A stretch of 64,000 nt of DNA, taken from positions 18,974,001-19,038,000 of the forward strand of contig NC_086097.1 of the NCBI RefSeq assembly GCF_963921235.1. The letters are read 5' to 3'. Positions within the stretch are counted from its first letter, which is position 1; the number at the start of each line of letters is the position of its first letter. The stretch is from Mobula hypostoma. Taxonomy: Eukaryota. Positions 514 to 64,000 of the stretch are shown here, piece after piece. Under the pieces are notes generated by a model that did not search any database, had not been told where the DNA came from, and saw nothing but the letters and a program-made list of their open reading frames with translations. The position numbers were made by a program, and so were the translations under genes.

Positions 514-1822
514 GGTTATGTTCTGCAACTCCAAAACATCAAACCAATTCAAAGGAAAACAAAAGATCTGAGAGATGCGAATCTTAAGTTTGTTCTTTAT
601 GTTAAGCAAAGCACGCATGTATCACATGGTAGCACAATGACGTATACAATTCATGTATTTATACATATAATCCATAATGAATGATTTAAACAAACAAAAA
701 TGCTTAATCAACCAATATATAGAAACATAGAAACATAGAAACATAGAAAATAGGTGCAGGAGTAGGCCATTCGGCCCTTCGAGCCTGCACCGCCATTTAT
801 TATGATCATGGCTGATCATCCAACTCAGAACCCAGCCTTCCCTCCATACCCCCTGACCCCTGTAGCCACAAGGGCCATATCTAACTTCCTTTTAAACATA
901 GCTAATGAACTGGCCTCAACAGTTTGCTGTGGCAGAGAATTCCACAGATTCACCACTCTCTGTGTGAAGAAGTTTTTCCTAACCTCGGTCCTAAAAGGCT
1001 TCCCCTCTATCCTCAAACTGTGACCCCTCGTTCTAGACCTCCCCAACATCGGGAACAATCTTCCTGCATCTAGCCTGTCCAATCCCTTTAGGATCTTATA
1101 CGTTTCAATCAGATCCCCCCTCAATCTTCTAAATTCCAACGAGTACAAGCCCAGTTCATCCAGTCTTTCTTCATATGAAAGACCTGCCATCCCAGGAATC
1201 AATCTGGTGAACCTTCTTTGTACTCCCTCTATGGCAAAGATGTCTTTCCTCAGATTAGGGGACCAAAACTGCACACAATACTCCAGGTGTGGTCTCACCA
1301 AGGCCTTGTACAACTGCAGTAGTACCTCCCTGCTCCTGTACTCGAATCCTCTCGCTATAAATGCCAGCATACCGTTCGCCTTTTTCACCGCCTGCTGTAC
1401 CTGCATGCCCACTTTCAATGACTGGTGTATAATGACACCCAGGTCTCGTTGCACCTCCCCTTTTCCTAATCGGCCACCATTCAGATAATAATCTGTTTTC
1501 CTATTTTTGCCACCAAAGTGGATAACTTCACATTTATCCACATTAAATTGCATCTGCCATGAGTTTGCCCACTCACCCAATCTATCCAAGTCACCCTGCA
1601 TCCTCTTAGCATCCTCCTCACTGCTAACACTGCCACCCAGCTTCGTGTCATCCGCAAACTTGGAGATGCTGCATTTAATTCCCTCATCCAAGTCATTAAT
1701 ATATATTGTAAACAACTGGGGTCCCAGCACTGAGCCTTGCGGTACCCCACTAGTCACCGCCTGCCATTCTGAACCATATACACAAGATAACTCAAATATT
1801 ACTGAAATATTAAATACACAAG
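514..1822. mobile_element. Possible solo-LTR-like element (about 250 bp net) interrupted by a CR1 insertion
   Basis: AT-rich segment from (g)gttatgttctgc to aaatacacaaga resembles degenerate TG...CA LTR ends. The halves 514-716 and 1774-1822 flank the CR1, with aaccaatata/aaccatata at the junctions. Confidence 0.3.
717..1773 (-). mobile_element. Young 5'-truncated CR1/HER1-type LINE (RT C-terminal half plus 3' UTR)
   Basis: Uninterrupted ORF with [52 protein letters not shown]. (TTTCTATG)n tail at about 717-750 on the minus strand. Confidence 0.95.
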
Positions 1823-2283
1823 AGGAACAACTCCTCATATTTCATCTGGGTAGCCTCAAATCTGATAGCATGAACATCGATTTCCCCTTACTGTAAAACA
1901 ACTTTTCTCTCTCATTACCTCTTTTTCTATTCCCCTCTCTGGCCTCATACCACTTCTCATGTGCCTATCACCTCCTGCTGGTACCCTTTCTTCTTCCCTT
2001 ACTCCCATGGCCCACTTGTTTCTCCTTTACAATACCTTCTTCTCAGGCCTGAATCTTTCCTACCCATCTGGCTTCACCTATCACCTCTGAGCTATCCTCC
2101 TTCCCCTACCCATCTTGTTATTCTGGTATCTTCTCCCTCCCTTTCCAGTCCTGAAGAAAGGTCTCGGCCTGAAACGTCGACTGTTTCTTCATTTCTATAG
2201 ATGCTGCCTGACCTGCTGAGTTCCTCCTTCATTTTGTGTCTATTGTTTGGGATGGCCAACATCTACAGAATTTCACGTGTCTA
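1821..2283 (+). mobile_element. Penelope-like element 3' end / pseudo-LTR
   Basis: Decayed EEQHLIFHLGSLxPDGMNIDF C-terminus, pyrimidine-rich tract, hammerhead motif and the conserved tagatgctgcctgacctgctgagttcctcc block. Confidence 0.85.
2146..2183 (+). ncRNA. Minimal type I hammerhead ribozyme (PLE-associated), intact core
   Basis: cagtc-CTGAAGA-a-agg-tctcgg-cct-GAAA-cg-TC-gactg: stem I cagtc/gactg, CUGANGA, stem II agg/cct, GAAA, palindromic ACGU stem III, GUC cleavage triplet. Confidence 0.8.
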
Positions 2284-2943: not shown

Positions 2944-4005
2944 ATGCATTCTTTCCTCCCAGCTCTCTGCTTTCCACTGTGATTCTGTGATTCCTTTGTC
3001 CATTTGTCCCTCCCCACTAACCTCCCTCCTGGCACATACCCTTGCAAGTGACAGAAATGCTATGCCTACCCATTTACCTTCTCCCTAATCTCCATGCAGG
3101 GCCCCAAACAGTCCTTCTAAGTGAGGCAACACTTCACCTGCAAATCCATTGGGGTTGATTATTGTATCCAAAGCTCCCAAGGCAGTCTCCTCTACATTGG
3201 TGAGACCTGATGTAGGCCACTCTCAGGGTGGAGGGGCAACACCTCATATTCCATCTAGGTAGACCCGAATCTGATGGCATGAACATTGATTTCTCCTTCC
3301 TGTAATTTTTTTTTTCTCTCCCCCTTCTATTTTCTCCTCTGGTCTCTTGCCTCTTCCCCTCACATGCCTACCACTTTCCCCAGAGTCCTCTCTTGCTTCC
3401 CTTTCTCCCATGGTTCATTCTTCTCTCCCATCAGATTCCTGCATCTCCAGCCCTTGACCTTTCCCATCCACCTGGCTTCACCTGTCATCTTCTAGCTAGC
3501 CCTCCTTCACCTCTCCCAACCTTTTTATTCTTGCATCTTCCCCCTTGCTTCCCTGTCCTGAAGAAGGATCTCAGCCTGGAAGATTGACTGTTTATTCATT
3601 TCCATAGATGCTACCTGGCCTTCTGGGTCCCTCCGTAGAAACATAGAAACATAAAAAATAGGTGCAGGAGTAGGCCATTTGGCCCTTCGAGCCTGCACCG
3701 CCATTCAATATGATCATGGCTGATCATCCAACTCAGAACCCTGTACCAGCCTTCCCCCCATACCCCCTGATCCTTTCAGCCACAAGGACCATATCTAACT
3801 CCCTCTTAAATATAGCCAATGAACTGGCCTCAACTGTTTCCTGTGGCAGAGAATTCCACAGATTCACCACTCTCTGTGTGAAGAAGTTTTTCCTCATCTC
3901 AGTCCTAAAAGGTTTCCCCTTTATCCTTAAACTGTGACCCCTCGTTCTGGACTTCCCCAACATCGGGAACATTCTTCCTGCATCTCCAGCATTTTGTATG
4001 TGTTG
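2944..4005 (+). mobile_element. Penelope-like element fragment (GIY-YIG endonuclease region plus pLTR), interrupted by CR1
   Basis: Decayed PKQSFxVRQHFTCxSxGVxYCI...LLYIGET motif. The pLTR resumes after the CR1 at 3984 (ctccagcattttg). Confidence 0.85.
3635..3983 (-). mobile_element. CR1/HER1 3' fragment
   Basis: Near-identical to 717-1070. FPMLGKSRTRGHSLRI...RVVNLWNSLP; ctcc is duplicated at 3631-3634 and 3984-3987. Confidence 0.95.
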
Positions 4006-4380: not shown

Positions 4381-6233
4381 ATTCTCCTTACTTATGCTTC
4401 CTCTTGATTTTATAAGCCTTGATAAAGTCACACCTCAAGCATTACATGACCTTCTGTGTTCTTGAGATGGACTTGGTCTTATATAGCCCATGTATTATTG
4501 ATTTTGGAATTGGCCATACACCATTCCATGTATTACTGAAATGGATTTGGTCCTTCATGGCCCTGTGTATTATGGAGATGGAATTGGTCTTGCACAGCTC
4601 TGTGACTCTGATTATAAGGCTTTCAGATAGGAACAGACCAGTGTAGAGCACAAAGCAGAGATCTCTTACGGGAGGTCTAATTGCATCATTTGTTGCTTTT
4701 TAATGATATGGGTCCTCCACAACCTGGACTGACACATTGACGTCGTGTGGAGGCTTGCGTGCTTCAAGGACTCCATCAGGCAATGCCATCTCAGGGCCAC
4801 CCACGCTGGAACGGCTGTGGACAAGATGCCAGACAAAGATCGATCCAAACCCAGTTCCTGAATGGACAGACTCGCATCTGCCCCTCCCGGGCCACACTTC
4901 AGTTAGAAGTGTGAATGCCATATGAAGCAACAACAATGATATGGCTCCTTAACTCGTGCAGATATGGTGGAAATAAGGCTCATTGTGATTTTCTGAGAAC
5001 TGGATAAATCTGTAGGGAAGAATTTGCAAGCCTCCAGAAGAAAGGCCAGCAAGGGAACTGATGAGTTCCTCTGGCGGGGAGACAGCATGGATCTAATGGA
5101 TCAAATGCCCTCCTCCCATACTGCAACCATTCCATGACTAACAGATGCAGAGCTTAGTACTGCTCACGTGATCTCACACTTTATACCAAATATATTTGCT
5201 CAGAATCTGACACAGAGAAATGATTTGAAATGTTCCCACAACCTATGGATTCACTTCTGACTTACAGTTCATCTCATGTTCTCGATCTTTACTTCTTATT
5301 TTTTATTATTATTATTATTATTTCTTTCTTTTTGTATTTGCACAGCTTGCTGTCTTTTACACACTTGTTGAATGCCCAAGTTGGTGCAGTGTTTCACTGA
5401 TTCTGTTATGGTTACTATTCTATAGACTTATCAAGTATGCCCACAAGAAAATGAATCTCAGAGTCATATATAATGGCATATATGCACTTTGAACATTTAA
5501 AAAAGGGAACAAAATATGTTCATCTAGGTGTCACACACAAAATACTGGAGGAACTCAGCAGGTCAGGCAGCATCAATCAGGCCAAGACTCTTCATCAGGA
5601 CATATGTTCATTTGTGTGATGTCTTTCCTGAAAACCTGAAAACATTTCATCCATTGTCATTCTAACAGGACAATTACCTCTTGATGGTGGGTCGGATGTT
5701 GTTGCCTGCAGTGTGGCAGCTGCATTTCCTACAGTGCCATACTTCAGGAGCAGTTAAGTGGCTGTGTAGTGCTTAAAACACCTTGAGATCCTGAAAGGCT
5801 CTTTATGAAAGGAAGTACCCTTCTTTAATACTGCACACAGCTCATTGAAACGTGTCACGGAGAGCTGCAGGTGGTATCCCAATAGAAGGAGGCAGACAGC
5901 TATCACCTGGTGAAAATAAAAAAAAATTGCAGGCTCTTAAATCTGAAATAAAATCAGAAAATACCAGAAAGACTTAGCAGCTCAGGCAGCATCTGTGGGA
6001 AGGGAAACAGTCATCATTTTGGGTCAGTGACCCTTGGTCGGAACTGGGAAAGCAAAGGATGTGACAGTTTCCAGTGGGGGAGAAGGTAGGGAAGGAATGG
6101 GTAAAACAAAGAGTCAGAAAGAGTCAAAAATGGCTTCATCGTGGCAATTCCCAGCACATTAAGTGACTGTGCAATGTGTTGTTAATGGTACAGTGGGAGA
6201 ACATGCCAAGCATTCCAGATTTGTAAGGCTTGT

Positions 6234-6965: not shown

Positions 6966-6974
6966 AGAGTCAGA

Positions 6975-7856
6975 GTTCTCTTGTTTGTCATCCTCCAACC
7001 TACTATCCCCCACATACAGCATATCCTCCTTAATCATTTATTATAGGTTCAGTGAGGTCCCACCACTCACCACAACTTCACCCCACCCATCCTCCCCTTC
7101 CCACAGAACTCTCTGCCTTCCACACGAACCACTCTCTCTCCCTGACCAGCTCATCTTTCCACAGCCACACCTACCTGATCCCTGGCACTTACCCCTTGCT
7201 CTTGCAGGAGGTGCCACACTCACTCCTATACCTCACCGCCATCCCGTGACCTTCCCGGTGAGGCAAATACTCATCTGTGCCCCCTCTGACTCGCTCACTG
7301 CGTTCGCTGTTCCTCAATGCTCAGCAAGACCAAACTAAGTGGTCAATTTGCGGAGCGCCTGCATTCTGTCTGCAGGGACCATTCCGAGCCCCGATATACG
7401 CCTTTGCAGCTCCCAGTCTTGCTCCCACACCAACCTGTCCTTCCTTGGCCTTCTTCACTTCCTGGTGAGAATATATCATCCCCACCTCCCAAGCAGCTGT
7501 CTCCTTCTGCATTGTCCCCTCCTCCACCTGGCTCCTTCTGTCTTTTTCATCCTTGCCTGTTTATACCTATCACCTCTTTCTTTCAACTTTGTCCCTCCCT
7601 CTCCCCCATCTGGCACTATCTGCCTATTGTTCTTACACTTGTCGGTCCTCCTGTCACCTACTGGCCGATCTTCCCACTCCTCCTCTCCTCTTTATACATG
7701 CTATCTTCCCTCGATCCTCGCCGTCATGTTGCAGGGTTTCGACGTGAAATATTGACTATTGTTTTACTTCCCACACCCCACCCACCCCACCATAGATGCT
7801 GCTTGACGTGCAGTTTGGTTTCTTTTGGTCAAGATTCCAGAAATGGCCTTCTCTTG
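6975..7856 (+). mobile_element. Old Penelope-like element fragment
   Basis: cctggcacttaccccttgc, ttcccggtgaggcaa...catctgtg, tttgcggagcgcctgcattctgtc (F.EHL.SV) and a decayed pLTR. Confidence 0.7.
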
Positions 7857-7859
7857 TGT

Positions 7860-8840
7860 CATTGTCTTGAGAGCAGAGGTGGCCCAGATGGAGAGAATGA
7901 GGGAAAAGGGATGATACCCTAACAGGGGGCAGGGTGGGCAGAGGTATGGGTGTGGTCATGGTACCTATGAGATTTAGTGGATTGAGAGAGGGTGTCATCA
8001 GGAAGTCTATCTCCTGAGATACAGACAGAGAGATTCACTGACACCACACACATACAAAACGCTGAAGGAACTCAGTAGGCCAGGCAGCATCTATGGGTTC
8101 AAATAAACAGTTGAAGTTTTGGGCCAAAACCTTTCATTCAGGACTGGAAAGGAAGGGAACAACAGCCAGAATTCCCTTCCACAGAATCTGCCTGGCATGC
8201 TGAGTTCCTCCAGCATTTTGTGTGTCCTGGTCAAGTTCATGTTCATTGTTGTTCAGCCATACACATGTATACACAGCACATACAGCACATAGAATAATTC
8301 AAACACAAAAATATTAACAGATAATAAAGTATCATTCTGAAAATGTGCGAGTTCACATATTCCAGCATCTGCCGGCCTCTCTTATGCTTACGAGATCGAG
8401 CGGAGGAAGTGTCAAAGATAGTCCAGGTGAATTTGAGGACAGGGTGGAAACTGGCAAAAATGATGAAATCGTTCCGTTTCTGAAATTAACGAGTCCTGCA
8501 CAAGTGTAGGAGGCAGCACTGATGCAGTTATTGATGTGGTGGAGATTGAGTTGGGGAGTGTGCCAGAATTGGCTTAGAATAAGATTTGTTCCCTGTAGCG
8601 ATTGAAAGACAGACACTGTTAGGACCCATGTGAGTGCCCACGGCCCAAGATTTGTAGAAAGTGGGAGGAACTGAATGACAAATTTTTGCGGATGAGGAAG
8701 GGGGCAGCTGGGGGCAGGGAGAAAGACTCTATTATCTAAGGTTGGAGGACTTGCTATTGAGTCCGGAGGCTGCAGTGTACCCAGACAGAAGGTGAGATGT
8801 TGTTCCTCAAGTTTCTGTTGCATCTCATGGCAACAGGGTA
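7860..8840 (-). mobile_element. Cluster of old Penelope-like fragments, including an inverted pLTR pair at about 8050-8230
   Basis: Reverse ORF contains QKLEEQHLTFCLGTLQP. pLTR blocks occur in both orientations. Confidence 0.65.
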
Positions 8841-9530: not shown

Positions 9531-9737
9531 TGTTGTCATTCCTCTCGCGCCTTGTGGCACATCAGGCAGCATTTTTTGCCATTTCTTTGGCGTTTGTCTG
9601 TTTTTTATGAGGCCGAGTTGCTAGCTTGACGCCCGGCCCAGCACGGACGGAAAGGGTGCAAGGAGTCAGCTGGATTTGAACCCAGGACCGTGCACCTCAA
9701 AGTCCAGTCCTGAAGCCACTGCACCACTGGCCAGCTA
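9531..9737 (-). mobile_element. tRNA-derived SINE with (CAA)n tail
   Basis: Minus strand shows A box gtggtgcagtgg and B box ggttcaaatcc. 13-bp TSD ggcacag(c/t)agtgt at 9518-9530 and 9738-9750; inserted in a V-SINE head. Confidence 0.85.
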
Positions 9738-9804
9738 GGCACAGTAGTGTAGTGGTTAGTACAGCACCACCAATTGGAAAATTCCCACTGCAATCTGTAA
9801 AGAC

Positions 9805-10533
9805 TTAGATTAGATTATGAGAACACCCAGTCCTCTTTTATTGTCATTTAGAAATGCATGCATGCATTAAGAAATGATACAATGTTTCTCTGGAGTGATA
9901 TCACAGAAAACAGGACAAACCAAAGACTAACACTGACAGAACCACATAATTATAACATATAGTTACAGCAGTGTAAAGCAATATCATAATTTGATGAAGA
10001 ACAAACCATGCCTATTTCGCTACCGCTGTTACTGCATGAACCGAAATTTCCGGAGGGGAAGGCCCTGAATCCTTGGCTTTCCCTGTTGCTTGGCGGTCGG
10101 GGCCGGGGTCGAAGCGCTCGGCAGAGATGGTGCTCGGTGCTCGGTGTCGGAGGGCTGGTCGGAGGCTCGAAGTTTTTGGACGGACTCAGAGTTGGACTGC
10201 GGTCGGGTGCTTCCGGAGTAATGCATCGACAAGTTTGCAGCACTGGAAGCTCATGGCAGGGAGAGTTTCTCCCTTCTACCCTCTGCGTGAGATGATGGGC
10301 TATCAGAACTTTGAGACTTTTTTTTACCGTGCCCATTGTCTGCTCTTATCAAATTATGGTATTGTTTTGCACTGTTGTAACTATATGTTATAATTATGTG
10401 TTTTTCGTCAGCTGTAGTTTTGGTCTGTCTTGTGTTTCTGTGATATCATACCGCAGGAACATTGTATCATTTTTAATGCATGCATTACTAAATGACAATA
10501 AACGAGGACTGAGTGTCCTCATAATCTAATAAT
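9805..10533 (+). mobile_element. CpG-rich non-coding retroposon with (TCTAA)n tail and an inverted copy of its own 3' end
   Basis: 10008-10533 matches 62955-63383 and the reverse complement of 59938-60440. 9805-10007 is the reverse complement of about 10333-10533. Confidence 0.85.
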
Positions 10534-12720: not shown

Positions 12721-13614
12721 AATGTTTCTGTTCTCTGTCACCTTTGACTGGTGCTGGTCCAGTACACTGATTGCTTCTTGCTGCACTCAATGAGTACCTG
12801 GCCAACCTCAGTTCCAGCCAGCCCTACTGAACCAATTGCAAGCACTGAGGTGACACTAGCTGTAAATAATTTCTGGGAAAATTAATTTGCAGAATGTTTG
12901 ATGTGCATTTTTCTGATGTTAAAATCAACAGGAATATATCAGGCTTCTTTCCTTTGGACGTTACTAAGCTCTGGATGAGGTTAATTTAACATCATCGCCG
13001 CTCTGCTTTAGATTTAAGATTGTCTAGAATAACAACTTATTTTTATAGAGCATTTGAAATATCATAAAGTTTTCCAGCGCACCATCAAACATAGTGGATG
13101 CTGAGCCGGATAAGAAGCAAGAGACCAAGGTCAGGGAGGGGTGTCAGAGCTTGGACCTCAATTGTGTATCTTGTGAAGGGAGTCTGAGCAAGTTAGGGCT
13201 TTTCTCTCTGGAGTGAAGGAGGATAAGAACGAGCTGAAATGACTGTGGGCGGGGAAATCTGATAGGTGAGGACAGTGTACCATGAAAGAAAGGGAAGGAG
13301 GCCGGATACCAGAGGAAGTGATGGACAGGGCAGCAGAAGAGAAGGGTGAGAGGGAACCAGAATGGTGAATGGAAGCAGAAAGAACAGAGAGGGGTGAAGA
13401 AATTGCCAGAAGTTGGAGAAATTGATATGCACGCCATTAGATTGGAGGCTACTCAGACAGTATACTGTAGGGTAATGTAACGGGTGACAGATGACACAAA
13501 TTGTTCACAATAGAAACTGTTCTACGTAATTCACAAATACCGTAATTAAATTGTTGTGTTCACTTTAAGAGACGGTGTCTGACGTAATGATGACAGTGTA
13601 AGGCGATTGCTGTT

Positions 13615-13868
13615 GGCTTTAAGGTAAGGGGTGGGAAGTTCAAGGGGGATATTAGAGGAAGGTTTTTCACTCAGAGACTGGTTGGTGCGTGGAATGCACT
13701 GCCTGAGTCAGTGGTGGAGGCAGATACACTAGTGAAGTTTAAGAGACTACTAGACAGGTATATGGAGGAATTTAAGGTGGGGTGTTATATGGGAGGCAGG
13801 GTTTGAGGGTCGGCACAACATTGTGGGCGGAAGGGCCTGTACTGTACTGTACTATGTTCTATGTTCTT
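13615..13868 (+). mobile_element. CR1 3' fragment inside a possible TG...CA LTR-like segment (13476 to about 13946)
   Basis: FFTQRLVGAWNALPESVVEADT followed by a (TATGTTC)n tail. Confidence 0.85.
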
Positions 13869-13949
13869 CGTAATGGAAGTAAAGGGCTGCGGCTTTTGTT
13901 AAACACATAAAGTGAATCTCACATGTTTTATTCACAAAATCTAACAATA

Positions 13950-14218
13950 ACCCCTCCAAGCTTCTTAATTCATTCTCCCTCCCCCTCCCCATCCAAACCA
14001 CCTTCCCTTCTCATCAGGTTTCACCTATCACCTGCCACCTTGCACTCCTTCCCCTCCCTCTTCCTTCTGGCTTCTGCCCCCTTCCTTTCCAGTCCTGGTG
14101 AAGGGTCTTGTCCCAAGACGACAACTGTTTATCCCTCTCCATAGGTGCTGCCTGATTTGTTGAGTTCTTCCAGCATTGCTCAAAATATCCAGCATCTGCA
14201 GAATCTCTTGTGTTTCTG
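13950..14218 (+). mobile_element. Penelope-like pLTR
   Basis: Pyrimidine tract, decayed hammerhead at about 14090-14127, and the conserved 3' block ending ccagcatctgcagaatctc. Confidence 0.75.
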
Positions 14219-14774: not shown

Positions 14775-15050
14775 CACACACAAAATACTGAAGGAACTCA
14801 GCAGGTCAGGCAGCATCTATGCATCAGATAAACAATCGGCAATTTGGGCCAGGACCCTATCTCTGGATGGGAAAGGAAGGGAGCAGAAGGTCGAGCACCT
14901 TTGCTCTGTCCACCACAATGGCCAGGATATCCCGCTGGTCACCCGTTTCAATTTGACTTCCCATTCCCACACAAGCAAGCACAGGCTGGAGGAGAAACCT
15001 TTCATATTCGATGTGGGTTGCCACTAACCTAACAGCTTGAATATTGATTT
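14775..15050. mobile_element. Penelope-like fragment with inverted pLTR
   Basis: Minus-strand pLTR at 14775-14890 joined to the plus-strand EHL...HFN...LEEKPFIF region. Confidence 0.7.
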
Positions 15051-15761
15051 GATCCATAATACTTAGGGGCAGAATTCAGCCCATCGAGTCTGCTCTGTCG
15101 TTCCATCATGGCTGATCCATTATCCTTCTCAAACCCACTCTCCCACAACCTTCGACACTCCCGTTCATCAAAAACCTGTCAGCTTTTGTTTCAAATACAC
15201 CCAATGACCCAGCCTCCACAGCCATCTGTGACAAGAAAACCACACAGACTCACCAGCCCTGGCCAGATTTCTCTAACTTCCAGTAACCACCCCCCTCTGC
15301 ATTCCCCCACGTGCCTTTTTTGTTTTCCCTTATTCTGGTAGCCCTCTAACCCCTTCTCTTCTCCGCTCCAACACGTATGACCTGTTGTAGCAGCAGTACA
15401 GTGCAAAGACATAAAAAATTGCTCTAAATTACAAAAATAAAATAATAAATTGTACAAAATTAGAATAGTGCGGTATTGGTCAGGGGTTCGATTTAGCAGG
15501 TCAAGGGCACCCATTGGAAGCATCAAGCAATCTGCTGGAGGAACTCCTCTGTCCCAAAGATGCTGCTCGACACATAGAGTTCCTCCAGCACATTGTTCGC
15601 ATCTCCATCACGCCGTTCTGCTGTTCAATGACTTTGTGATAGATCTGTGACTTGACTCCATAGAAGAAAAGAGTGAGGTAGTGATGGAAAGGAGTAAATT
15701 AGAAAGAGTAGAAGAGGAAGGTTACAAGCTAATTTTGAATTAGGAAAATACAAGAGGGTAA

Positions 15762-20178: not shown

Positions 20179-21061
20179 TAGATGTGACAATGTCTTGTAC
20201 TACTTTCTTAAAGGAGAAAGAGGGAAAGAGGCAAGTAAAGGAGCAAGTGCCTTAAAGAAAGATCCAATAACTGCTTAAAGTATGCAAAGGGAAGAGATTA
20301 GAAAAAAATAAATGGGATCCTTTAAAAGCACAGATAAGAGAAATTATAATGAGAAATAAGGAAATGGCAGAGATATTAGCAATGCTGATATAGCAGAAGA
20401 AAACACAAAAAAAAACATTGTGGAAATAATAGGAAACCAAGGCTTGATAAAAATAAGGAAAAGAAAGTATTAGTAGTTCCCTTGATGTGGAAGATAACAA
20501 AAGCGACACCACCATATTAGAACTGAGGGAAAGTGAAAACAGAGCTGCTTGTTTGACATCAGAAAATTTAGGACTGACTATGAGCATTAAATAATGATAA
20601 TGTGATTGGGCAGTGTCAGCACTGATTTATAAAAGGAAATCATGTTTGACAAATTGGTTCATGTGAAATTATAGCAAGCAGGGCAGGTAGGTACCATTCA
20701 ACGAACATAAGTGTTTATGGATTTTCTGAAGAAATTTGAAAAGCACCACAAGAGGCAGAGATAAGGCTCTCCGGATTTATTAACACAGAATGAGGCTTGA
20801 TTAATAGAAATACGAAAATGTGAACTAAGAAAAATAGATTTTCACAATAGCAGCCAATAAACAAGTGCCACATCCTAAGGTAAATCAGGCACTAAGCTGC
20901 AAGAGGACTGAGAGTTCATTCAGTAAGAAGATGGCAAATGCAGAATAATACTGTAAAATGTGAATGTGCAGTTACAGGTGTGGCTCAAGTTACAAACACC
21001 CAGCTTGTTCTGAATGGGTGTTTGGAAAATAGAGCCTGACCTCGGGTTGCAGCAGTATCAA

Positions 21062-21610: not shown

Positions 21611-21849
21611 ATTACACTTTTCAATGAAATCTGATTGGCTGAGTTAAGCATCCTGATTCAACTGCCTGGTTGGCCTATGCTTTTATTTAAGTATATTGAC
21701 AGCAGCTGTGTTTCCAGCTTGCAGACTGATCAGGTTGTGAATGGTTCTCAGGAACTGATGCCTGTGGAGTTCAGGGGAGGAACTGCAGATAGGAAACCAG
21801 TAAATCAGAATCTTTCTTAAATAGCAGGTTTGAATATGGATTATGGATT

Positions 21850-24690: not shown

Positions 24691-24734
24691 AATAGTGAAG
24701 GAAAAGAAAACCAAAAGTTATGGACATAAGCACA

Positions 24735-24985
24735 GGAGGTTTTGCAGATGCTGGAATTCCAGAGCAACACACACAAATGCCGGAGGAACTCATGAGGTTA
24801 GGCAGCACCTCAGCCAAAATATGCCATCAGAATGGAAAAGGACAGGAGAAGGTGCCAGAAGATGAAGGTGGAGGGAAAGGAAAGAAGGACAAGCTAGATA
24901 GAAGGTGATAGGTGGGAGAGGGGAGATGGATTAAGAAACTGGAAGGTGATAGGTGGAAAAGGTAAAGGGCTGGCAAAGGATATGG
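24735..24985 (-). mobile_element. Penelope-like pLTR
   Basis: tgcagatgctggaattccagagcaacacacacaaatgccggaggaactca followed by a purine tract. Confidence 0.7.
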
Positions 24986-25980: not shown

Positions 25981-26119
25981 CCTTCCTCGCATGATCCAAT
26001 CTCCTCTCCTGTCAGATTCCTTCTCCAGTCCTTTGCCTTTTCCACTTATCACCCCCAAGCTTCTTACTTTGTGCCCCCTCCCCCACCTACCTGATTCACC
26101 AATCACCTTCTAGCTTGGT

Positions 26120-26930: not shown

Positions 26931-27144
26931 GGAAACTATCTCACTTTCCCCTCCTTCCCCTCCCCCCACCTTCCTTTTCTGGCATCATCCCCCCTCGTTT
27001 CCAGTCCTGGCCCGGGACATCGACTGTTTATTCACCTCCATAGATGCTGCCTGACCTGCTAAGTTTGTCCAGCATTTTGTGTGTGTACCTCTAAATAATG
27101 ACAGGTACGGGTTTTCTCCGTAGGACCTCTGTGCAGTATTAGTA

Positions 27145-28455: not shown

Positions 28456-28766
28456 CATCAATAAGATCAATTTGACAATTGGAATTAATTGTACAATGTA
28501 AACAACTTACTCTAGGATTGCCCGTGGACAGAAGTGGTAAATGTCAGTAATTGATTGACATTTTGCTTACTTCAGTTGTAGAACATCATTTCCCCATTGC
28601 CCCACACATATCTAGCTTTATTTTTATCCTTTCTGTGGCATTAACTGGCATGAAATTAAATGCCAAAAGGATTATTTTGTGTCCAGTGTACATCTAACTG
28701 CGGTGAAGTACATTGGCCTGAGAAAGGTGGTGGTGCGTTCTATTCTGGTCACATCAATGTGTAAGA

Positions 28767-29045
28767 GGCCAGGCAGCATCTCTAGGAAGAGGTACAGTCG
28801 ACGTTTCGGGCCGACACCCTTCGTCAGGACTAACTGAAGGAAGAGCTAGTAAGAGATTTGAAAGTGAGAGGGGGAGGGGGAGATCCAAAATGATAGGAGA
28901 AGACAGGAGGGGGAGGGATGGAGCCAAGTGCTGGACAGGTGATTGGAAAAAGGGATATGAGAGGACCATGGGACAGGAGGCCCAGGGCCACCAGCAACTT
29001 TGATGTGTGTTGCTTGAATTTCCAGCATCTGCAGAATTCCTCGTG
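28767..29045. mobile_element. Young PLE pLTR insertion with a 5' inversion
   Basis: 13-bp TSD tcaatgtgtaaga at 28754-28766 and 29046-29058. 28767 to about 28988 is on the minus strand and 28989-29045 on the plus strand. Confidence 0.9.
28795..28832 (-). ncRNA. Minimal hammerhead ribozyme, intact core
   Basis: Reverse complement: tagtc-CTGACGA-a-ggg-tgtcgg-ccc-GAAA-cg-TC-gactg. Confidence 0.85.
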
Positions 29046-36399: not shown

Positions 36400-37640
36400 C
36401 ATAGACATTGGAGAAGGTTACCAAAAATTATCGGGGGGATGGGGTGCTCCTGATCGGCTGGATAAATAGGCTAAGGACTGGCAAATAGCTTTCAGTTCAG
36501 ATGAGTGTGTGGTGTTATCTTTTGGGTAGTCCAACCAGGAAAGATTTTATACAGTGAATGGTTGGGCCCTGGGAAGTTTTGTAGAGAGGGACCCAGGAGT
36601 ACACAGTTCACTAGAAGTAGCATCACAGGTATAAGATAATATCAGATTCATTTGTCACACATACGTTGAAACATGCAGTGAAATGTGTCATTTGCGTTAT
36701 CGTTTGTGATGTGCTGAAGGAAGCCCACAAGTATTGCCCACTCTTCCGGCACCAACATAGCATGCCAATAACTAACCACATTTCTTTGGAATGTGGGAGG
36801 AAACTGGAGCAACCGGTGGAAACACTCAGGGAGAATGTACAGACAGCAGCAGGAATTGATCCCCAGTCAGTGATAGCTGGTGCAGTAAGGTGATTGATGT
36901 AACCGCTAAGCTACCATGTTGGGTAGACAGGGTGGGAAAGAAAGCATTTGACATGCTGGCCTTCATCAGTCAGGGCACTGAGTACAGAGGATGGGACATT
37001 ACATTGCGGTTGTACGAGATGGTTGGTGAACGGCATTTGGAGAATTGTGTACAGTTTTGGTCACTCTGCTATAGGAAAGATGTCACTAAGCTGGAAAGAG
37101 CCCAGAAAAGATTTACAAGGATGCTGCTAGGTCTCAGAAGCCTGAGTTATAGGGAGAGGTCAGGCAGGCTAGAACTTTATTCCTTGGAATGTGCAGTACT
37201 GTTTATTCATTTCCATAGATGCTGCCTGACCTGCTGAGTTCCTCCAGCGTTTTATGTGTATTACTGTAGGAGATTGAGGGGGAGACCATTTAATGTTGTC
37301 TAATGTTATGAGAGGCAGTGATAGTGATCTCACACAGTCGTTTTCCCAAAGAAGGTGAGCTAGAAACTAGAGGACATAGGATTAAAGTGAGGGGTGAAAG
37401 ATTTGAAAGGGACCCGAAAATCAGCTTCTTCATGCAAAGGGTGGTGCGCTTATGGAATAAGCAGCCAGAGAAAATAGTTTTAGGAGATAAAATAACAACT
37501 TTTAAAAGACATTCAGACAGATATGAGGATAAGAGGGATGCAGAGGGATATGAGCCAAACAGGGGAAAATGGCGGACACCCTGGCTGCCATGGACAAGTT
37601 GGGACAAAGGGCCTTTCCTCGAGCTGTATAACTCAAAGAC
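36400..37640 (+). mobile_element. Old CR1 fragment with nested V-SINE-like (about 36630-36920) and PLE (37193-37267) pieces
   Basis: KKAFDMLAFISQGTEYR...HLENCVQFWS...TRGHRIKVRGERF...RVVRLWN. Confidence 0.85.
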
Positions 37641-38905: not shown

Positions 38906-39494
38906 CTATCACAGGTATACCATGTCATACCACATTATACCATATTCCTCAGTGCAAAACACAAACACAATCAGAGCCAAGTTCACCATAGTGCATGTGG
39001 TAGTCCAGGTGTTCCATTGCTGAAGAAGGGTTAGGACTGTGCAGCTCAGTTCAAGAACCTGACGACTGTAGGAAAGTAGATGTACCTCTTCCTAGAGATG
39101 CTGCCTGGCCTGCTGCGTTCACCAGCAACTTTGATGTGTGTTCTTGAACCTTGTGGTGTAGGATCTGAAGCTTCTGTACAGTAGTGCAAGAAAAAGGCCG
39201 GATCTGGATGGTGGAGATCCCTGATTGCAGCAATCCGATCAGATTCCACCAGTGACCTCACTAATGTATCATGAGTCAAAGAAGATTCAATTAGCCAGTG
39301 AAGCCCATCCTTCCAAGCAGGCAAGAACATAGAGCAGGTTAAATTGAAGTGCATGAGTCATAGGTGGAGGAGTATTTTGCCAGTAAATTAATTTTTGTCC
39401 TCATAGTCCACGAAGTGAAAGGTAGCATTTAAACCTTTACCCATTCATCATGGTCTCTAAGCAGTGCAAAAGAGGGGAGGGGACGGAGGGAATG

Positions 39495-40225: not shown

Positions 40226-41021
40226 CAAACAAGAGAAAATCTGTAGGAGCTGGAAATCTGAGCAACAGACACAAAATGCTGGAGGAACTCCGCAGGCCTG
40301 GCAGCATCTAAAAGACTACAGTTGATGTTTCGGGCTGCGACTCTTCAGCGGAACTGGAGAGAAAAAAAGATGAGGAGACAGACAGAGAAGGTGGGGGACG
40401 GGAGGAAGAAACACACGGTGATAGGAGGAACCAGTGGGGTGGGTGGGCAGAGGGGTGAAGTAAAGAGCTGGGAAGTTGATTGGTGAAAGAGATACAAGGC
40501 TGGAGAAGAGGGAATCTGAAAGGAGAGGACAGGAGGCCATGGATGAAAGGAAATGGGGATGAGCATCAGAGGGAGGTGCTAAGGTGAGAGAGAGAAATGG
40601 GGAATAGTGAAGGGGGGGCATTATCGGAAGTTTGAGATATCAATATTCATGCCATCAGGTTGGAGGCTAACCAGATGGAATTTAAAGTGTTGCTCCTCGA
40701 ACCTTAAAGAGGTCTCATCGTGACAGCAGAGGGGGCCATGGACTAACATGTTGGAATGGGAATGAGAAGTAGCATTAAAATGGGTGGCCACTAGGAAATC
40801 ACGCTTTTTCTGGTGGACAAAGAGCAGGTGCTTGGTGAAATAGTCTCCCAATCTACGTCGGGTCTCATTGATATACAGGAGGCCACACTGGGAGCACCGG
40901 ATACAGTAGATGACCCCAACAGACTCTCAGGTGAAGAGTCACCTCACCTGGAGGGACTGTTTGGGGCCCTGAATGGTAGTGACGGAGGAGGTGTAGGGGC
41001 AGGGGTAGCACTGGTTCAGTT
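40226..41021 (-). mobile_element. Penelope-like element 3' fragment (GIY-YIG C-terminus plus pLTR)
   Basis: GDYFTKHL...VATHFN...RFEEQHFKFHLVSLQPDGMNIDISNFR; 12-bp TSD tccatctaggaa at 40214-40225 and 41022-41033. Confidence 0.9.
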
Positions 41022-42451
41022 TCCATCTAGGAATTCTATTTATTCATGGAGCACAAAACATATAATAGAACATTATAGCACAGTAAGGCCCTTCAGCCCA
41101 CAATGTTGTGCCAACCTTATAGCCTAATCTAAGATCAATCTAACCTTTCCGTCCTACATAGTCCTTCATTTTTCTATCATGGATGTGCCTATCTAAGAGT
41201 CTCTATTCAAACAAGCTGGCACAAGAATTTGAACAGGGTGAAGTTTTATCTATTTATTGGAGCTGGATAATCCTGGTATTAATTGCCCATCCTAAATTAG
41301 CCCTGAATTATCTGGCTTGCCACGTCATTTCTAAGGACAATAAAGAGTCAACTAGACTCTTGCACAATTGCGTGGTCTGGAGTCACGTATAACACAAAGC
41401 AGACAAGGACAGCAGAGGTCCTTCATTCAAGGACATCAGTAAATTATATTTTTAATATGTTCCACAGTCGCTGCAGCTGAGACTTACTTTAAATTTTAAT
41501 TTTAATTTTAATTTAAACTAAACGCCCCAAGTACCAGAATGGGATTTGACTTGTCTATCAAGTCAATAGTCCAGACCACCTCCTGTGTCAGTGCATTAAC
41601 TTCATCAAGGTAATGCAAAGACTAGTGGACTGCCAAGTGTTATGAAGGTGTGCGTTTGTAGAAGGGTCGATCAATTGAAAGGGCATTGAGTAATGATTTG
41701 CTGATTGGAGTGTGGACAAACATTTTTTACATGTTAAACGTGCATCTGATGAAGGGTCTCCAGCCAAAACATGCTGCCTCAGCTCCTCCACCGTCTTGTG
41801 TGTTGCTCCAGGTACCAGCACCGACAGTCTCATGTGTCTCAAGAAATGCATTGCATTCATATCGATCGGCGTACATACTCCAACTTAAAATAAATTCAAC
41901 AGTGTTTGTGTAACAATCCCTAAAGCAGGGTTCCAACCACTCAGTTATTGGTAGGGATTCATTTCATTAAAAAGTTGGGAGTCTCTGCCTTAAAGTATCC
42001 AGTGGAAGAGAGTATTGTGCTCAGTTCTGGTGGCCTCATTATAGGAAGGATGTGGAAGCTTCAGAAAAGATGCTGAGATTTACCAGGATGCTGCCTGGAT
42101 AGAAAGCATGTTTTATGAGGAAAGTCTGAGCCGAGGTAGGGCTTTTCTATTTGGAGCACAGGAGGATGAGAGGAGAATTGATAGAGGTGTATAAGAATAT
42201 TAAGAGGCATGGATAGAGCGGACAGTCAGAGACTTTTTCCAAGGCAGAAGCGGCTAATATGAGGGGGCATAATTTTAAGGTGATTGGAGGAAAGTTTAGG
42301 GGAGATGTCAGAGGCAGGTAGGCAAAAGAGTTCACTGCTCTCGTCTGATGGCGTTATCACTTTAAGTTCCTTGAGACCTATTCTGCTCTTCATGACAACC
42401 ATTGCTCATGCAAAATAAGATAAATGTTCCTTCCTGTTTGGGTGAATCAAT

Positions 42452-47387: not shown

Positions 47388-47822
47388 ATGGAAAATCTAA
47401 CAGAGCTTCAGAACCCTCTGCTGGAGAAGAACCAACACGTTGGAGGTGATTTTGGTTTCAGAGAGGATTATAATGAGGAGCGGCATTACAAGGAAAAACT
47501 CCTGAGCTACTTTGTGAGCAATAATTCAGCCAAGAACAAACCCAAGGCCAACTTCACCCGGCAGCTCCTGGACGCCAGCTCCCTTCACCTGGCCGTGGAG
47601 GCGTTTTACCGGCCCAATTTTATCTTGTACAAGGACGAGGCAAAAGAAAGTGGGAAGGATTGCAGGAGTGACAGCTGTGAGACAACGTTCACTGAGAGGA
47701 AGAACTTGACTATTGACTGTCCCGACCATTCAGAGTCTAAACTTGTGGAGTACACGGAGAACGACGTGACGATCCAGACAGTCTCCTATGAGGTGGAGGA
47801 AGAAGAGTTTCATGACTGCGAG
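47388..47822 (+). CDS. SYNDIG1L: Synapse differentiation-inducing gene 1-like (capucin/TMEM90A), first coding exon (145 codons); exon probably starts at 47236
   Basis: MENLTELQNPLL, KEKLLSYF, QLLDASSLHLAVEAFYRP, SCETTFTE and VTIQTVSYEV match recalled human SYNDIG1L (MESLSELQNPLL, QEKLYSYL, QLLDPGSLQLAVEAWYRP, SCETSFTE, VTIQTVSYGV). Kozak context AGAATGG; acceptor tctctctctttgcag at 47221-47235; phase-0 donor GAG|gtaaag at 47823. Confidence 0.93.
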
Positions 47823-49146: not shown

Positions 49147-49429
49147 AGAGTTACTTTGGCAAAGGGGGAATCCATTCGGCCCATGCAATCTGGGCTATCC
49201 CTTCGTAGATCCATCCATTCAGTCCCCAGTCATAGAAAAGATCCACTTGTCCACATTTGGCTGATATCCCTCCAAAAATTCCTATCCATATTCCTGTACA
49301 AGTGACTTTTAAATGTTGTTATTTTGCCTTTCTCAACCACAACCTCTGGCAGCTTGTTCCATATATGCACCACCCCCTGCGTAGTTTCCTCTCAAGACCC
49401 CTTTAAATCCTTTCCTTCTCCCAAACAGA

Positions 49430-50058
49430 AGAGACTCTGAAGATGCTGGAAACCATGAGCAACACACATAAAATGCTGGAGGAACTCAGCAGGTCAGGCA
49501 GCACCTATGGAGGGGATTAAACAGTCAACGCCCATGGCTTTCTCTGTTGCCATGGTGAGGCCAAACTCAGGTTGGAGGAGCATCTTCGCAAATTCCGCCT
49601 GGGTAGCCTCCAACCAGGTGGCATGAGCATTCATTTCTCTAACTTCTGGTAACTTCTCTCCACTCCTTCCATCTCTCCTTTTCCATTTCCCATTCTGGTT
49701 CCACTCTCACTTCTTCTCGTCTCCTCACGCTCCCTTCACCTCCCTCTGGTGCCTCTCTCCTTCCCTTTCTTCCAATGTCCACTTTCCTCTCCTGTTAGGT
49801 TCCTTCTTATTCATCCTTTTCCCTCTTCCTCCCAACTTCTTACTTCATCCTCCCTCTCCCACCCACCTTCACCTTCACCTGTTTCTGCCAAACATCAGCT
49901 AACTTGTACTCATCCCCCTCCCCCCACTTTCTTATTCTGGGTTCTTGCCCTTTCCTGTCCAATCCTGATGAAGGGTCTTGGCCCCTAACATCGACTGTTT
50001 ATTCCCCTCCATAGATGCTGCCTGACTTGTTGAGTTCTTCCAGCATTTTGTGCATGTT
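49430..50058. mobile_element. Penelope-like fragment with inverted pLTR
   Basis: Minus-strand pLTR at 49430-49530 joined to the plus-strand ORF end and pLTR at 49533-50058. Confidence 0.8.
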
Positions 50059-51601: not shown

Positions 51602-51739
51602 ACAAACAACAGGAATTCTGCAGATGCTGGAAATTCAAGCAACACACATCGAAGTTGCTGGTGAACGCAGCAGGCCAGGCAGCATCTATAGGAAGAGGCG
51701 CAGTCGACGTTTCAGGCCGAGACCCTTCGTCAGGACTTC
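51602..51739 (-). mobile_element. 138-bp PLE pLTR insertion beginning at the hammerhead
   Basis: 13-bp TSD gtgaggcagatca at 51589-51601 and 51740-51752. Confidence 0.9.
51701..51737 (-). ncRNA. Minimal hammerhead ribozyme, intact core
   Basis: Reverse complement: agtc-CTGACGA-a-ggg-tctcgg-cct-GAAA-cg-TC-gactg. Confidence 0.8.
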
Positions 51740-54200: not shown

Positions 54201-54211
54201 TAGCCAGAGTA

Positions 54212-55272
54212 ATACAGACAAAATGCAGGAGGTGCTCTGCAGGTCAGGCAAAACAATAAACAGTCAATATTTCAGACCAAGACCCTTCATCAGGACTGGA
54301 AAGAAGGGAGAAGAAGCCAGAATTAAAGGTGAGGTAAGGAAGAGTACAAGCTAGAATCTGATAGGTGAAGGAGGGTGATGAAGTGAGAAGCTGGGAGGTG
54401 ATAGGTAGAAAAAGTAAAGGGCTGGAGAAGGAAGAATCTGGTAGGAGAGGAGCATGGGTGACCCTGTCTTCCCACTGCCCTAACAGGAATAGAGCTCCTC
54501 TTGTCCTTACCTGCCATCCCATGAGCCTTCACATCCAGCACATCGTTCTCCACAACTTCCACCAACTTCAAATGAATCCTACCACTAAACACATCTTTAC
54601 CTGTCCACTCCCCACTCTCCACTCGCCACTTTCCTCAGGGATTGCTCTCTCCAAGACTCCCCTGTCCTTTTGTCCCTCCCCACTAATCTCCCTCATGGCA
54701 CTTCGCCCTGCCAGTGCAAGTGCTACACCTGTCCATTCACCTCCCAACAGTCCTCGCTGGTGAGACAACACTTTACCTGGGAATCCACTGGGGTCAGCTA
54801 CTGTATCCAGTGCTCCACTGGGTCTCTATATTGGTGGGACCCAGTGTAGATTGGAGGATCACTTTGTCGAGCACTTTCACTCCATCGGCAACAAGCAGGA
54901 TTTCCTGGAGACCAATCATATTAACTCCAATCCACACTCCCATTCCGACAGGTCGGATCTACTGCCTCGATGAGACTACCCTCATGTTGGAGGAGCAGCA
55001 CCTCAAATTCCGTCTCAAAACAGATGGCATGACTCTCGATTTTTGCCCCTCCACTTCCTCTTCTGCCCCCTCCCTTATCTCTTATCTCCTCACCTGCCCA
55101 TCTCCTCACCCTGATACTCCGCATCCTTCCTTTTCTCCCACGGTCCTAATGAAGGGTCTCAGCCGGAAAAGTTGACAATTTATTCATTTCCAGAGGTGGT
55201 GCCTGGCCTGCTCAGTCCCTCCTGCATTTTGTGTTTTGTAACTCCGGATTTCCAGCATCCGCAGAATCTCCC
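54212..55272. mobile_element. Penelope-like element with inverted 5' pLTR
   Basis: Minus-strand pLTR at 54212-54460, then plus-strand NRNRAPLVLTCHP...IQHIVLHNFHQLQ...PTTKHIF, GIY-YIG relic and pLTR. Confidence 0.85.
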
Positions 55273-60590: not shown

Positions 60591-62054
60591 TACTTCCTGA
60601 GGAGACTGAGGTCCTTGGTAGTATGCAGGCTTCTCCTTCACATGTCCTACCAATCTATAGTCGCCAGTACAATCTTCTATACGGTGGTGTGCTGGGGAAA
60701 TGGCATCAAAACGGGTGATGCCAACAGCCTCAATAAACTGATTAGAAAGACTGGCTCTGTTCTTGGAGTCAAACTGGACACACTGGAGGCTGTGGTAGAA
60801 TAAAGGACACAATAGAAAATGCTGGCAATTCTGGACAATATTTCTCACCCTCTGCATGCCACCTTGGCTGAACAGAGGAGCACTTTTAATGATAGACGAA
60901 GACAACTGTGCTACCCCAAAGAGCGCTATATAAGGTCATTCTTACCCTTGCCTATTAGGGTCTATAATGAGTTAACCAATAGCCGGGGAAGTGATGACCC
61001 CCATCCTCTTAGACTGTCTGTAGTCATTTATTTTTTTTATTCTTTCTACTTCTCTTCTAATATATCTATTTGTGCATTTGTAATGCTACTGTGACACTGT
61101 AATCTTCTTTGAAATCAATAAAGTATCTACAGTATCTATCTATCTGCTGTCATGGTGCATAATACATGAAAGGACTTTGTCCAGTGCCATGGCCAACACG
61201 TACCTGTTGGCTCAGCTCGTAGATTGTTTGTGGGATGTACTATATGTCAAAAGAACAATTAGATGTCCGTTCAAGTAAGAACTCTTCAGAAGTAATTCAT
61301 TAACCAAGACGCACACTACCCCTCTCTTCCCCACTCCTGTTCTCACCCAAGACAGCTTTAGAGGATCTTTTAATTATCACATTAGTTGACATCACAGCCA
61401 TAGTTGAATGGTCTTGGCCTGAAATGTCTACTGTTTATTTAGTTCATTCGATGCTGCCTGACCTGCTGAGTTCCTCCAGTATCTTGTGTGTGTTGCCAAG
61501 CCAAACTTCCTGTTGTATATTGCATATTGCCAGAGAACTTCAGTACTGTGTTAAAGACATAGGCGTGTGTGTATATATATAGCGAAGGCGGAGCACCGTG
61601 GGAGGGGTATGGGACAGGTGGCATATAAGGAATGGCAGGAAGGGCGTGAGATGGTGTTGGTGCAGATACATCCAGCCCTGAGGCACCCGTCAAGGTCATT
61701 TGATTCCAGACAATTGGTTTATTGATCATCATAGAATGTCTCTCTAATGCTTCCCACTCCCTCCCTTTCCTTTCCCCTTTTCTCAATCATGATTCCCCTC
61801 TCCCTGCCCCTTTCCACTTATCCGTCCATGATAGAGACCCATAGCAGCATCAGGTCTATCAGCACTCATATATGTCATGAAATTTGTCTTTTTATGTAGC
61901 AGCAGTACAGTGCAAAACGTAGCTATATCATCATCATCATTATGTGCCATACCATAACCTGAGCGACCATGGTCTTAACCGTGATTGTTCTTGACAATTT
62001 TTTCTACAGAAGTGGTTTGCCCTTTTTTCAGCAGTGCAATATATAAAATGACCA

Positions 62055-62126: not shown

Positions 62127-62344
62127 TTACTGGAGTGGGAACAATTGCAGTCAATGCCTGAAGCAGGTTCTGTTGCTTTCCACTGTAGTTACCTTCAGGC
62201 ATGAGTTTCCCTGTGTAGGTGGATACCTGATTATTGACAAGGAATACGATGAGGCTGGGGAGCATGTTTCTGTGAAGTACGACCTTGTGTAAATATGGGC
62301 AGGTGCATTACCGAGGCAACTGAGAAAAGGGAGAACCTAAGTAC

Positions 62345-62515
62345 AAGAGATTCTGCAAATGCCGACAACCCAGAATAACACATACAAAATGCTGCAGAAC
62401 TCAGCAGATCAGGCTGCATCTGTGGAGAGGAATAAAAAGTCAATGTCTCAGGCCAAGACCCTTCTTCAATACTGCCTGGCCTGCTGAGTTCCTCCAGCAT
62501 TCTATGTGTCTTACT
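62345..62515. mobile_element. Inverted PLE pLTR pair
   Basis: Minus-strand block at 62345-62472 followed by plus-strand ctgcctggcctgctgagttcctccagcatt. Confidence 0.75.
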
Positions 62516-63383: not shown

Positions 63384-63397
63384 CTTCTTGAGGAGCT

Positions 63398-63660: not shown

Positions 63661-64000
63661 GAATGAATAGAGCGGTATTTGTGGAAGGAAAGGAATGGAC
63701 AGGTTTGGACTTGCAACCCTAACAATTCCTTTCGTCCCACAGATGGTGCTTAACCCATAGAGTTCCTCCAGCAGGTTGCTTGTCACTTCAGATTCCAGCT
63801 TCTGCTGTCTCCTCTGTCTTCAGACTTCAACATTCCTAATTTCTTGGCCCAGAATCATCAAGAAGCAAACCATTGAATACAGCGAAGATCAGTGGGACAT
63901 TTGGAGCGGCGGAAGCTGAGGGAAGACCAGTTAAAAAGTTTATAAAATTGGAGGGGCATAGATAGAGTAGGCAGCTGATATCTTCTTCCTTTGTTAGAAA

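Follow-up and report, generated by a model that had tools for sequence, protein, structure and literature searches.

The window analysed here, a stretch of 64,000 nucleotides (64 kb) from Mobula hypostoma, holds the first coding exon of SYNDIG1L and many remnants of the end of a Penelope-like element (PLE), several of which contain a minimal hammerhead motif (Table 1). Over 145 aa the exon shares 99% identity with a cluster that takes its name from Hemitrygon akajei, and 85% with an electric ray and a shark, which places the window in a myliobatiform ray. Residues 146-243 lie outside the window, as do the exons of the CD225 domain, and the sequence from 47823 to the window end is therefore probably one intron. 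The ribozyme copies had been predicted to surround a neuronal gene, and SYNDIG1L can now be put in that place.

Table 1. Features of the window (positions are those of the window; hammerhead scores are core bases kept out of 11).
Feature	Position	Strand	Remarks
5'-truncated PLE copy with focal motif	1822..2282	+	endonuclease last codons 1822-1884, pyrimidine-rich 3' region, hammerhead, long tail
Focal minimal hammerhead	2146..2183	+	older subfamily, 11/11, stem I 5 bp, 10.1-11.1 = A-U
Copy with linker and endonuclease remnant	2989..4002	+	decayed hammerhead 3553-3590, A13 and palindrome lost
Short copy starting in stem I	5524..5601	-	internal deletion over cut site, 10-bp target duplication 5514-5523/5602-5611
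Old divergent copy	5955..6058	-	hammerhead 6008-6046, 7/11
Old copy with ORF remnant	6966..7813	+	decayed hammerhead 7721-7758, 8/11
Head-to-head pair, two outward tails	8049..8237	both	minus arm with hammerhead 8108-8146, G12 lost
Copy with decayed hammerhead	13956..14215	+	hammerhead 14090-14127, 7/11; inverted upstream piece 13241-13463(-)
Copy with decayed hammerhead	14775..14889	-	hammerhead 14833-14870, 5/11; adjoins inverted endonuclease remnant 14800-15123(+)
Copy with internal deletion over cut site	24727..24980	-	outer arm, probable head-to-head pair with 25979-27090(+)
Copy with 14-nt deletion	26950..27090	+	most of CUGANGA box and stem II 5' strand gone
Young insertion with 5' inversion	28766..29045	both	minus arm 28766-28986 (hammerhead 28795-28832), plus arm 28987-29045 (tail)
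Short copy	37198..37265	+	begins one base 3' of predicted cut site
Young-subfamily tail (from ~39085) after degenerate hammerhead-like stretch	39012..39148	+	treated as chimeric, not counted
Longest clean copy	40226..41021	-	endonuclease end 40624-40926, stop 40621-40623, hammerhead 40319-40356 (9/11), long tail
Heavily deleted remnant	41746..41840	+	hammerhead 5' half fused to tail, without cut site
SYNDIG1L first coding exon, ATG to splice donor	47388..47822	+	protein similarity
Head-to-head pair, two outward tails	49420..50058	both	minus arm starts 4 nt before cut site; plus arm with endonuclease end and hammerhead 49960-49997 (9/11)
Young 138-bp insertion starting at stem I	51602..51739	-	hammerhead 51701-51738, 11/11, G.U at 10.1-11.1
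Head-to-head pair, two outward tails	54205..55272	both	minus arm: core-complete, weakly paired 54261-54298; plus arm: ORF remnant, 55141-55178 (G5 lost)
Short copy	61403..61497	+	begins within CUGANGA box
Head-to-head pair, two outward tails	62342..62512	both	minus arm begins within 5' core box; plus arm tail only
Old divergent remnant of same PLE end	63698..63782	+	nhmmer profile

The focal 38-nt motif is a minimal type I hammerhead lying about 265 nt 3' of the stop codon of a GIY-YIG endonuclease. Its class, dimer-type design and place in a Penelope-like pseudo-LTR agree with the original prediction, as does the sequence of all four copies named there (at 2146, 28795, 51701 and 54261); the predicted cut of the focal hammerhead, after 2178, is correctly placed on the hammerhead model. 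We searched the window with a minimal-hammerhead descriptor (both core boxes present, 15.1-16.1 palindromic, no fewer than 4 bp in stem I and 3 bp in stem II), which matched these four copies and nothing else, and found no match in 200 dinucleotide shuffles. A strict GGG..CCC pattern matched once, at 28804-28827(-), with no match in 100 shuffles. The four copies share an open stem I of 4-5 bp and a closed stem II of 4 bp that includes a U.G pair, and have no helix III; the palindrome is ACGU in three and AUAU in one.

These cores had been described as intact. This holds for the 11 core bases (the CUGANGA and GAAA boxes and U16.1-H17), which are kept in 4/14 copies that span the whole motif and in the majority sequence, but not for the pair G10.1-C11.1, which is A-U at 2146 and G.U at 51701 and 54261. 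Only 28795 has this pair beside a complete core (1/14 full-span copies), making 28795-28832 the only fully canonical hammerhead in the window. Across the 14 copies the pair is G-C in six, G.U in five, A-U in one and something else in two. Replacing it slows cleavage. An extra A follows A9 in 17/19 fragments; the combination of this extra base with G10.1-C11.1 is found in the family and in 28795, but not in the focal motif. The stem lengths given earlier also need amending, as stem I of 51701 has 4 bp rather than 5 and stem II gains a fourth pair (U.G) in 11/14 copies. The ATAT variant at 54261 is present, but we rejected its interpretation as a compensatory change; no such change is needed, since 54261 sits amid general CpG decay at 15.2-16.2 (CG in 4, CA in 3, TG in 2, TA in 2 and other states in 3 of the 14 full-span copies).

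Rfam returned no hammerhead match, either for the whole window at E<=5 (nine unrelated rows, all under gathering) or for 28740-28900 at E<=10, as expected for a motif that lacks helix III. Single-strand folds were no better than those of shuffled sequences (z-scores -1.1 to +0.75). In 4/4 copies a pair of monomers, or some other duplex, had a better predicted energy than the double hammerhead, a result that carries little weight because the folding model ignores core contacts.

An iterated nhmmer profile of the ribozyme and tail region, run on the window and on its reversed sequence, found 26 fragments in the former and none in the latter. Overall there is about one remnant per 3-4 kb, close to the one per 4 kb estimated before. 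Fourteen fragments span the ribozyme with at most three gaps each; 39012 was left out of this set as chimeric. Of 13 decayed copies listed earlier, 12 fall within profile fragments, and the one near 41745 appears only with filters off (E=0.086) or by pairwise alignment. Fragments beyond that list lie at 14775-14889(-), 24768-24870(-), 37198, 39012, 44360, 49463-49538(-) and 63698, together with three tail-only pieces. Internal deletions of 20-30 nt remove the predicted cut site in 5524-5601, 24727-24870 and 41746-41840, and the right breakpoints of these deletions lie at about +12 to +22 relative to that site. The ends of the 41746 deletion would fit GT..AG, but it is too short for an intron.

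The host element can be recognised from its protein. On the minus strand, 40624-40926 reads through 101 codons without a stop, and its product shares 71% identity with a protein of Mobula hypostoma (P0001) that combines reverse transcriptase (RT) motifs and a C-x4-C-x2-C linker with a GIY-YIG end (E=5e-4 for GIY-YIG, under the cut-off). With this protein as query, tblastn gave 14 pieces in the window and none in the reversed window, including the endonuclease end of the focal copy (81% over 21 aa, E=1e-5), a copy that nhmmer also finds. The RT core is absent from the window copies; remnants of the thumb region are present. Pfam, run on seven window stretches, gave no GIY-YIG match and one chance TraY row, with nothing for the endonuclease remnant alone; NCBIfam matches were only weak, and no solved structure matched. 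The closest protein-atlas clusters of the remnant are GIY-YIG proteins; 889 representatives match it, and 5/5 long relatives scanned combine RVT_1 with a C-terminal GIY-YIG. Decayed traces of a CX2-5CxxC linker are found in three window remnants. The host is an EN+ PLE, and the linker, a single motif common to Neptune and Nematis (Craig et al., 2021; PMC8557442), points to these clades, probably to Neptune. The stop-to-ribozyme distance is 264 nt in the 40226-41021 copy, and the tail 3' of the ribozyme comes in two forms, short or long. A Hypanus protein labelled 'mucin-2 isoform X2' (P0002) ends in the linker and endonuclease of the ray PLE, likely a mis-annotation.

Copies in the window are 5'-truncated, some have inverted 5' parts, and four loci are head-to-head pairs with two outward tails (Table 1). 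Target duplications of 10-13 bp were found at 4/17 boundary pairs tested, against 6/300 random pairs with at least 10 bp. None was found at the other 13/17, which include all two-tailed head-to-head pairs. The longest clean copy (40226-41021) is flanked by a 12-bp duplication; another 12-bp match, at 39109, was rejected as a self-match. Duplications of 13 bp surround 51602-51739 (51589 and 51740) and 28766-29045 (at 28754 and 29046). The latter insertion (28754-29058) has an inverted 5' part with about 9 nt missing at the inversion point, a pattern we take to be twin priming as in L1, and 13241-14215 may be a second insertion of this kind. None of the 18 tandem-repeat rows in the window (period <=500) is a tandem array of the ribozyme unit, nor does the window contain a pLTR-ORF-pLTR partial tandem or a full-length master. 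No copy here has a competent tandem partner on the same strand, and the head-to-head partners lie on opposite strands.

A diagnostic tail unites three of the sequences, 28766-29045, 39085-39148 and 51602-51739, whose aligned parts agree to about 91-97%; the remaining fragments are 65-96% like the majority sequence. This young subfamily is recent, as the 51602-51739 insertion is absent from a relative about 2% diverged. A contig of run X6 (record 28) joins 51588 straight to 51740, lacking exactly the insertion and one copy of the duplication (one contig, one run), and the X6 organism differs from the window by 14/989 and 16/777 positions. Contigs of run X1 enter the insertion from both flanks. 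Since X6 covers the 55141 copy, that copy is older than the 51602-51739 insertion. The loose-end consensus of both DNA runs has the palindrome ACAT instead of ACGT (agreement 0.53-0.55), in line with its loss in most older copies. Both hammerheads of the young subfamily (28795-28832 and 51701-51738) have C at N7, which allows one core box to pair with the other. In the predicted folds of the monomer the core is locked; C at N7 also occurs in 15/97 motifs of other families.

We then compared how the core and its surroundings have decayed. Outside CpGs, mismatches to the majority sequence affect 20/139 core and 66/515 tail positions (p=0.67, with six junction bases of 62474 masked), although anchoring of the profile, which used the tail in part, may make the tail seem less divergent than it is. 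Among the older copies alone the figures are 20/119 and 57/455 (p=0.23). CpGs have been lost at 40/48 sites in the 12 older copies vs 1/8 in the two young ones, and three of the four CpGs in the 38-nt motif, mostly lost, lie at functional positions. The number of older copies that keep a complete core, two, is that expected under neutral decay (1.8, n=12). Compared with the pyrimidine-rich 5' flank, the core has fewer mismatches (21/140 vs 79/304, p=0.010), and the spacer, with 41/139, is also above the core. Because flank and spacer differ between subfamilies and align poorly, we read this contrast as a product of low-complexity, poorly aligning, subfamily-divergent sequence and of constraint on the masters, although it may hold a trace of constraint on the copies themselves. 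The original prediction had made excess conservation of the core over its flanks in young copies a touchstone. Over young and older copies together (two of them young), such an excess is missing relative to the 3' tail and seen relative to the 5' flank. The covariation of stems I and II that it proposed to look for does not exceed that of shuffles among the 14 window copies (85.7% paired, with 256/500 shuffles as high; covariation score 0.173 vs 0.167, with 175/500 as high).

A different picture emerges across families. A core-only pattern matched at least 122 metagenome stretches (with flanks in full for 80) and one viral stretch; among the matches listed there are 127, of which 126 have flanks and 97 are distinct. 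The pattern fixes the core bases and does not require stem I to pair. Nevertheless, at least four consecutive Watson-Crick pairs occur in stem I in 33/97 of the distinct motifs listed, compared with a mean of 2.4 and a maximum of 8 in 1000 swaps, and all four pair types occur at each of its first three positions in these 97. Stem I thus covaries strongly across 97 unrelated motifs, and selection therefore probably acts on master elements. Judged from these alignments, the hammerhead design is under selection in the element lineages and not in the dispersed copies of the window. Among the 126 motif loci listed, 23 lie within 600 bp of a PLE-protein match, and nhmmer found none belonging to the ray family. 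Some metagenome contigs have two motif matches each (L004/L005, L021/L022, L057/L058, L036, L043 and L090), either on opposite strands, with between a few bases and 2.5 kb separating them, or on the same strand and 1-5 kb apart, arranged as PLE ends are.

The density of the motif can be extrapolated with caution. Four core-complete copies per 64 kb correspond to 62 per Mb (95% interval 17-160), and the one canonical copy to 16 per Mb (0.4-87). With a genome of 3-4 Gb, and if the window is typical, there would be roughly 50,000 to 600,000 core-complete motifs genome-wide. Under the same assumption, this exceeds the minimal hammerheads reported from coelacanth (4,000) and Xenopus (9,000) (PMC4209133), and is comparable with the up to 120,000 canonical retrozyme copies of axolotl (PMC7229834; bioRxiv 10.64898/2026.07.22.740005). 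Summed contig depth over 51544-51747 reaches 5.3 million in X1 (13-16 in unique bins) and 12.1 million in X6 (55-80), although this is not a copy number, may be inflated up to about 30-fold by overlap of short contigs, and is only a hint of great abundance. A large load is plausible for motif-derived DNA and is not supported for active ribozymes. The very large ribozyme load originally proposed is not borne out: 4/14 copies are core-complete, decay is neutral, covariation and tandem partners are missing in the window, and the core-complete copies in the SYNDIG1L intron (51701 and 54261) are antisense to the gene. The copy at 28795 is antisense and upstream of SYNDIG1L, and 2146 is sense, 45 kb before the start codon; in the intron, 0 sense vs 2 antisense core-complete copies is not a significant difference.

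Taken together, we consider the motif to be a type I hammerhead of the minimal kind, housed in the pseudo-LTR of an EN+, probably Neptune-type PLE, and the dispersed copies to be its fossils rather than working ribozymes (probability about 0.88). By analogy with published elements, a master with pLTR-ORF-pLTR structure would carry two hammerheads on one transcript. Their ACGU palindromes would pair to form the missing helix III, and the paired hammerheads would cut slowly, probably aided by the element's protein. Reverse transcription would start in the tail, some 60-100 nt downstream of the cut site, so that nearly every short insertion would carry the ribozyme; a copy spanning the cut site would derive from RNA that was never cut or had been religated. 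After insertion, a solitary copy would have no partner and would rapidly lose C11.1/G12, the palindrome and C17, because these are located in CpGs.

Several other explanations could be considered. That the hammerhead resemblance is a coincidence, in a repeat without ribozyme ancestry, might be argued from the missing Rfam match, the unremarkable folding z-scores (-1.1 to +0.75) and the lack of covariation within the window. However, the descriptor has no match in 200 shuffles, stem I covaries across families, and the motif shows the published signature (PMC4209133), namely its place in the element, an additional A behind A9, G10.1-C11.1 and the palindrome; shuffle test and cross-family covariation refute this reading, and its probability is negligible. 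It is also very improbable that many solitary copies act within host transcripts, finding a partner in trans or in a copy further away, cutting pre-mRNAs and shaping the expression of genes such as SYNDIG1L. The density of core-complete copies (62 per Mb, 17-160) would provide the material, family sequence abounds in the contigs of two putative RNA runs, and an antisense orientation of both core-complete intron copies is what counter-selection would predict. Yet 0 vs 2 is not significant, and the putative RNA contigs reveal neither strand, end nor level. The window copies decay neutrally without covariation, and the neighbours on the same strand of the intron, 2.5 kb apart, have unlike palindromes (ACGU and AUAU). 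In the published work, monomers did not cleave and dimers did so at low levels (PMC4209133), with cleavage in 1/9 Xenopus dimers and none in 8/9.

The short copies might instead form an independent, non-autonomous family of about 140 bp, SINE-like or akin to a non-LTR retrozyme, with its own circular RNA cycle and borrowed PLE enzymes. The 5' end of some copies does fall at the 5' half of the ribozyme or within it (5601 at -31, 51739 at -32, 61403 at -23 and one near 62470), one young copy has a clean target duplication, and retrozymes have been reported from one cartilaginous fish. But the 5' ends are scattered from -357 or further to +14, many copies continue into endonuclease or RT-thumb sequence, the young insertion 28766-29045 holds about 150 nt upstream of the ribozyme, and the unit forms no tandem arrays within the window, all of which make such a family quite improbable. 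Another explanation, which we hold to be unlikely, is that the masters keep the motif for protein binding, RT pausing or a promoter or 5'-UTR structure, and that it rarely cleaves. In the anole, catalytic mutations left insertion in vitro unchanged and none of the reads had its end at the cut site (PMC11167929), Naiads thrive without the motif (PMC8557442), and with C at N7, as in the young subfamily, the predicted core-box helix lies 4 kcal/mol below the open monomer in energy. On the other hand, the anole ribozyme does cleave with the protein and is rescued by the C3-G8 change (PMC11167929), and catalytic bases and covarying stems recur across families (the core being fixed by the search pattern). 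This explanation concerns the masters and is compatible with the dispersed copies being fossils, which remains our preferred reading.

The class, the dimer model and the solitary, dispersed nature of the copies are already in print (Cervera and de la Pena, 2014), and minimal hammerheads have been reported in Xena, Poseidon and Neptune elements of fishes (PMC4209133). The ray motif shares with them the type I topology without helix III, the palindromic 15.2-16.2, the extra base A9-10.1, the short helix I, the consensus pair G10.1-C11.1 (highly conserved in the class), a predominance of solitary copies from truncated elements, and some pairs on opposite strands, 100-700 bp apart (PMC4209133). 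It differs in that helix II is short (3-4 bp) and the extrapolated density may exceed theirs; cartilaginous fishes are not named in the results and discussion of that paper. We found no description of ray minimal hammerheads in the literature consulted, although Repbase, Dfam or supplements may hold the family.

The ray element also resembles the Neptune and Nematis elements as described by Craig et al. (2021) (PMC8557442), with the RT, CX2-5CxxC linker and C-terminal GIY-YIG of P0001, heavy 5' truncation, inverted 5' copies, an optional 30-40-bp tail and the head-to-head arrangement. In contrast to that description, the ray window holds no full-length element or partial tandem, and has clear 10-13-bp duplications at four insertions. 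In the Poseidon element of Anolis, from a different clade, the ribozyme likewise lies upstream of two preferred 3' ends and insertions span the cut site; cleavage by its ribozyme depended on the protein of the element, and the tail was where reverse transcription set in (Frangieh et al., 2024; PMC11167929). Priming on both strands, as in that element, would fit the two-tailed head-to-head pairs. Non-LTR retrozymes (PMC7229834; bioRxiv 10.64898/2026.07.22.740005) have in common with the ray copies a type I hammerhead, a link to PLE termini and high copy numbers. Retrozymes are, however, tandem non-coding units, while the ray copies stand alone or inverted and run on into the PLE ORF, and no tandem arrays were seen among the copies of the window.

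Other repeats are found alongside these remnants. LINE fragments with RVT_1 and an 8-bp tail repeat, which we take to be of the CR1 clade, are abundant (719-1770, 3636-3985, 21014-21651, 42457-44072 and others). One of them splits the tail of the 2989-4002 copy at about 3636-3985, and so was inserted later than the copy with the hammerhead at 3553. A further repeat family occupies 9703-10530, 59948-60336 and 62956-63385, with copies 74-88% identical. The long imperfect inverted repeat at 49033-49146 is probably a small DNA-transposon-like element; its best Rfam row, a microRNA, was rejected as a chance match.

Our analysis extends the known association of PLEs with minimal hammerheads to a ray, and shows why, in a vertebrate genome with methylation, ribozyme activity is overestimated from motif counts alone. 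A bolder possibility is that ray genomes contain tens to hundreds of thousands of core-complete hammerheads, that the family has gone on jumping since close relatives split and that its breakpoints record cleavage in vivo. We regard this as improbable; three remnants without the cut site and two that begin within 4 nt of it are too few to be distinguished from ordinary truncation. If it were true, ray loads would be among the highest of vertebrates, the core-blocking C at N7 of the young subfamily would be a built-in off switch, and the cutting of PLE hammerheads in vivo would become a purely computational test, based on 5' ends and deletions at the cut site. The young and very abundant subfamily, with its clean duplications and empty site, is well suited to a genome-wide study of PLE insertion ends, and likewise to asking whether the ribozyme cuts in vivo.
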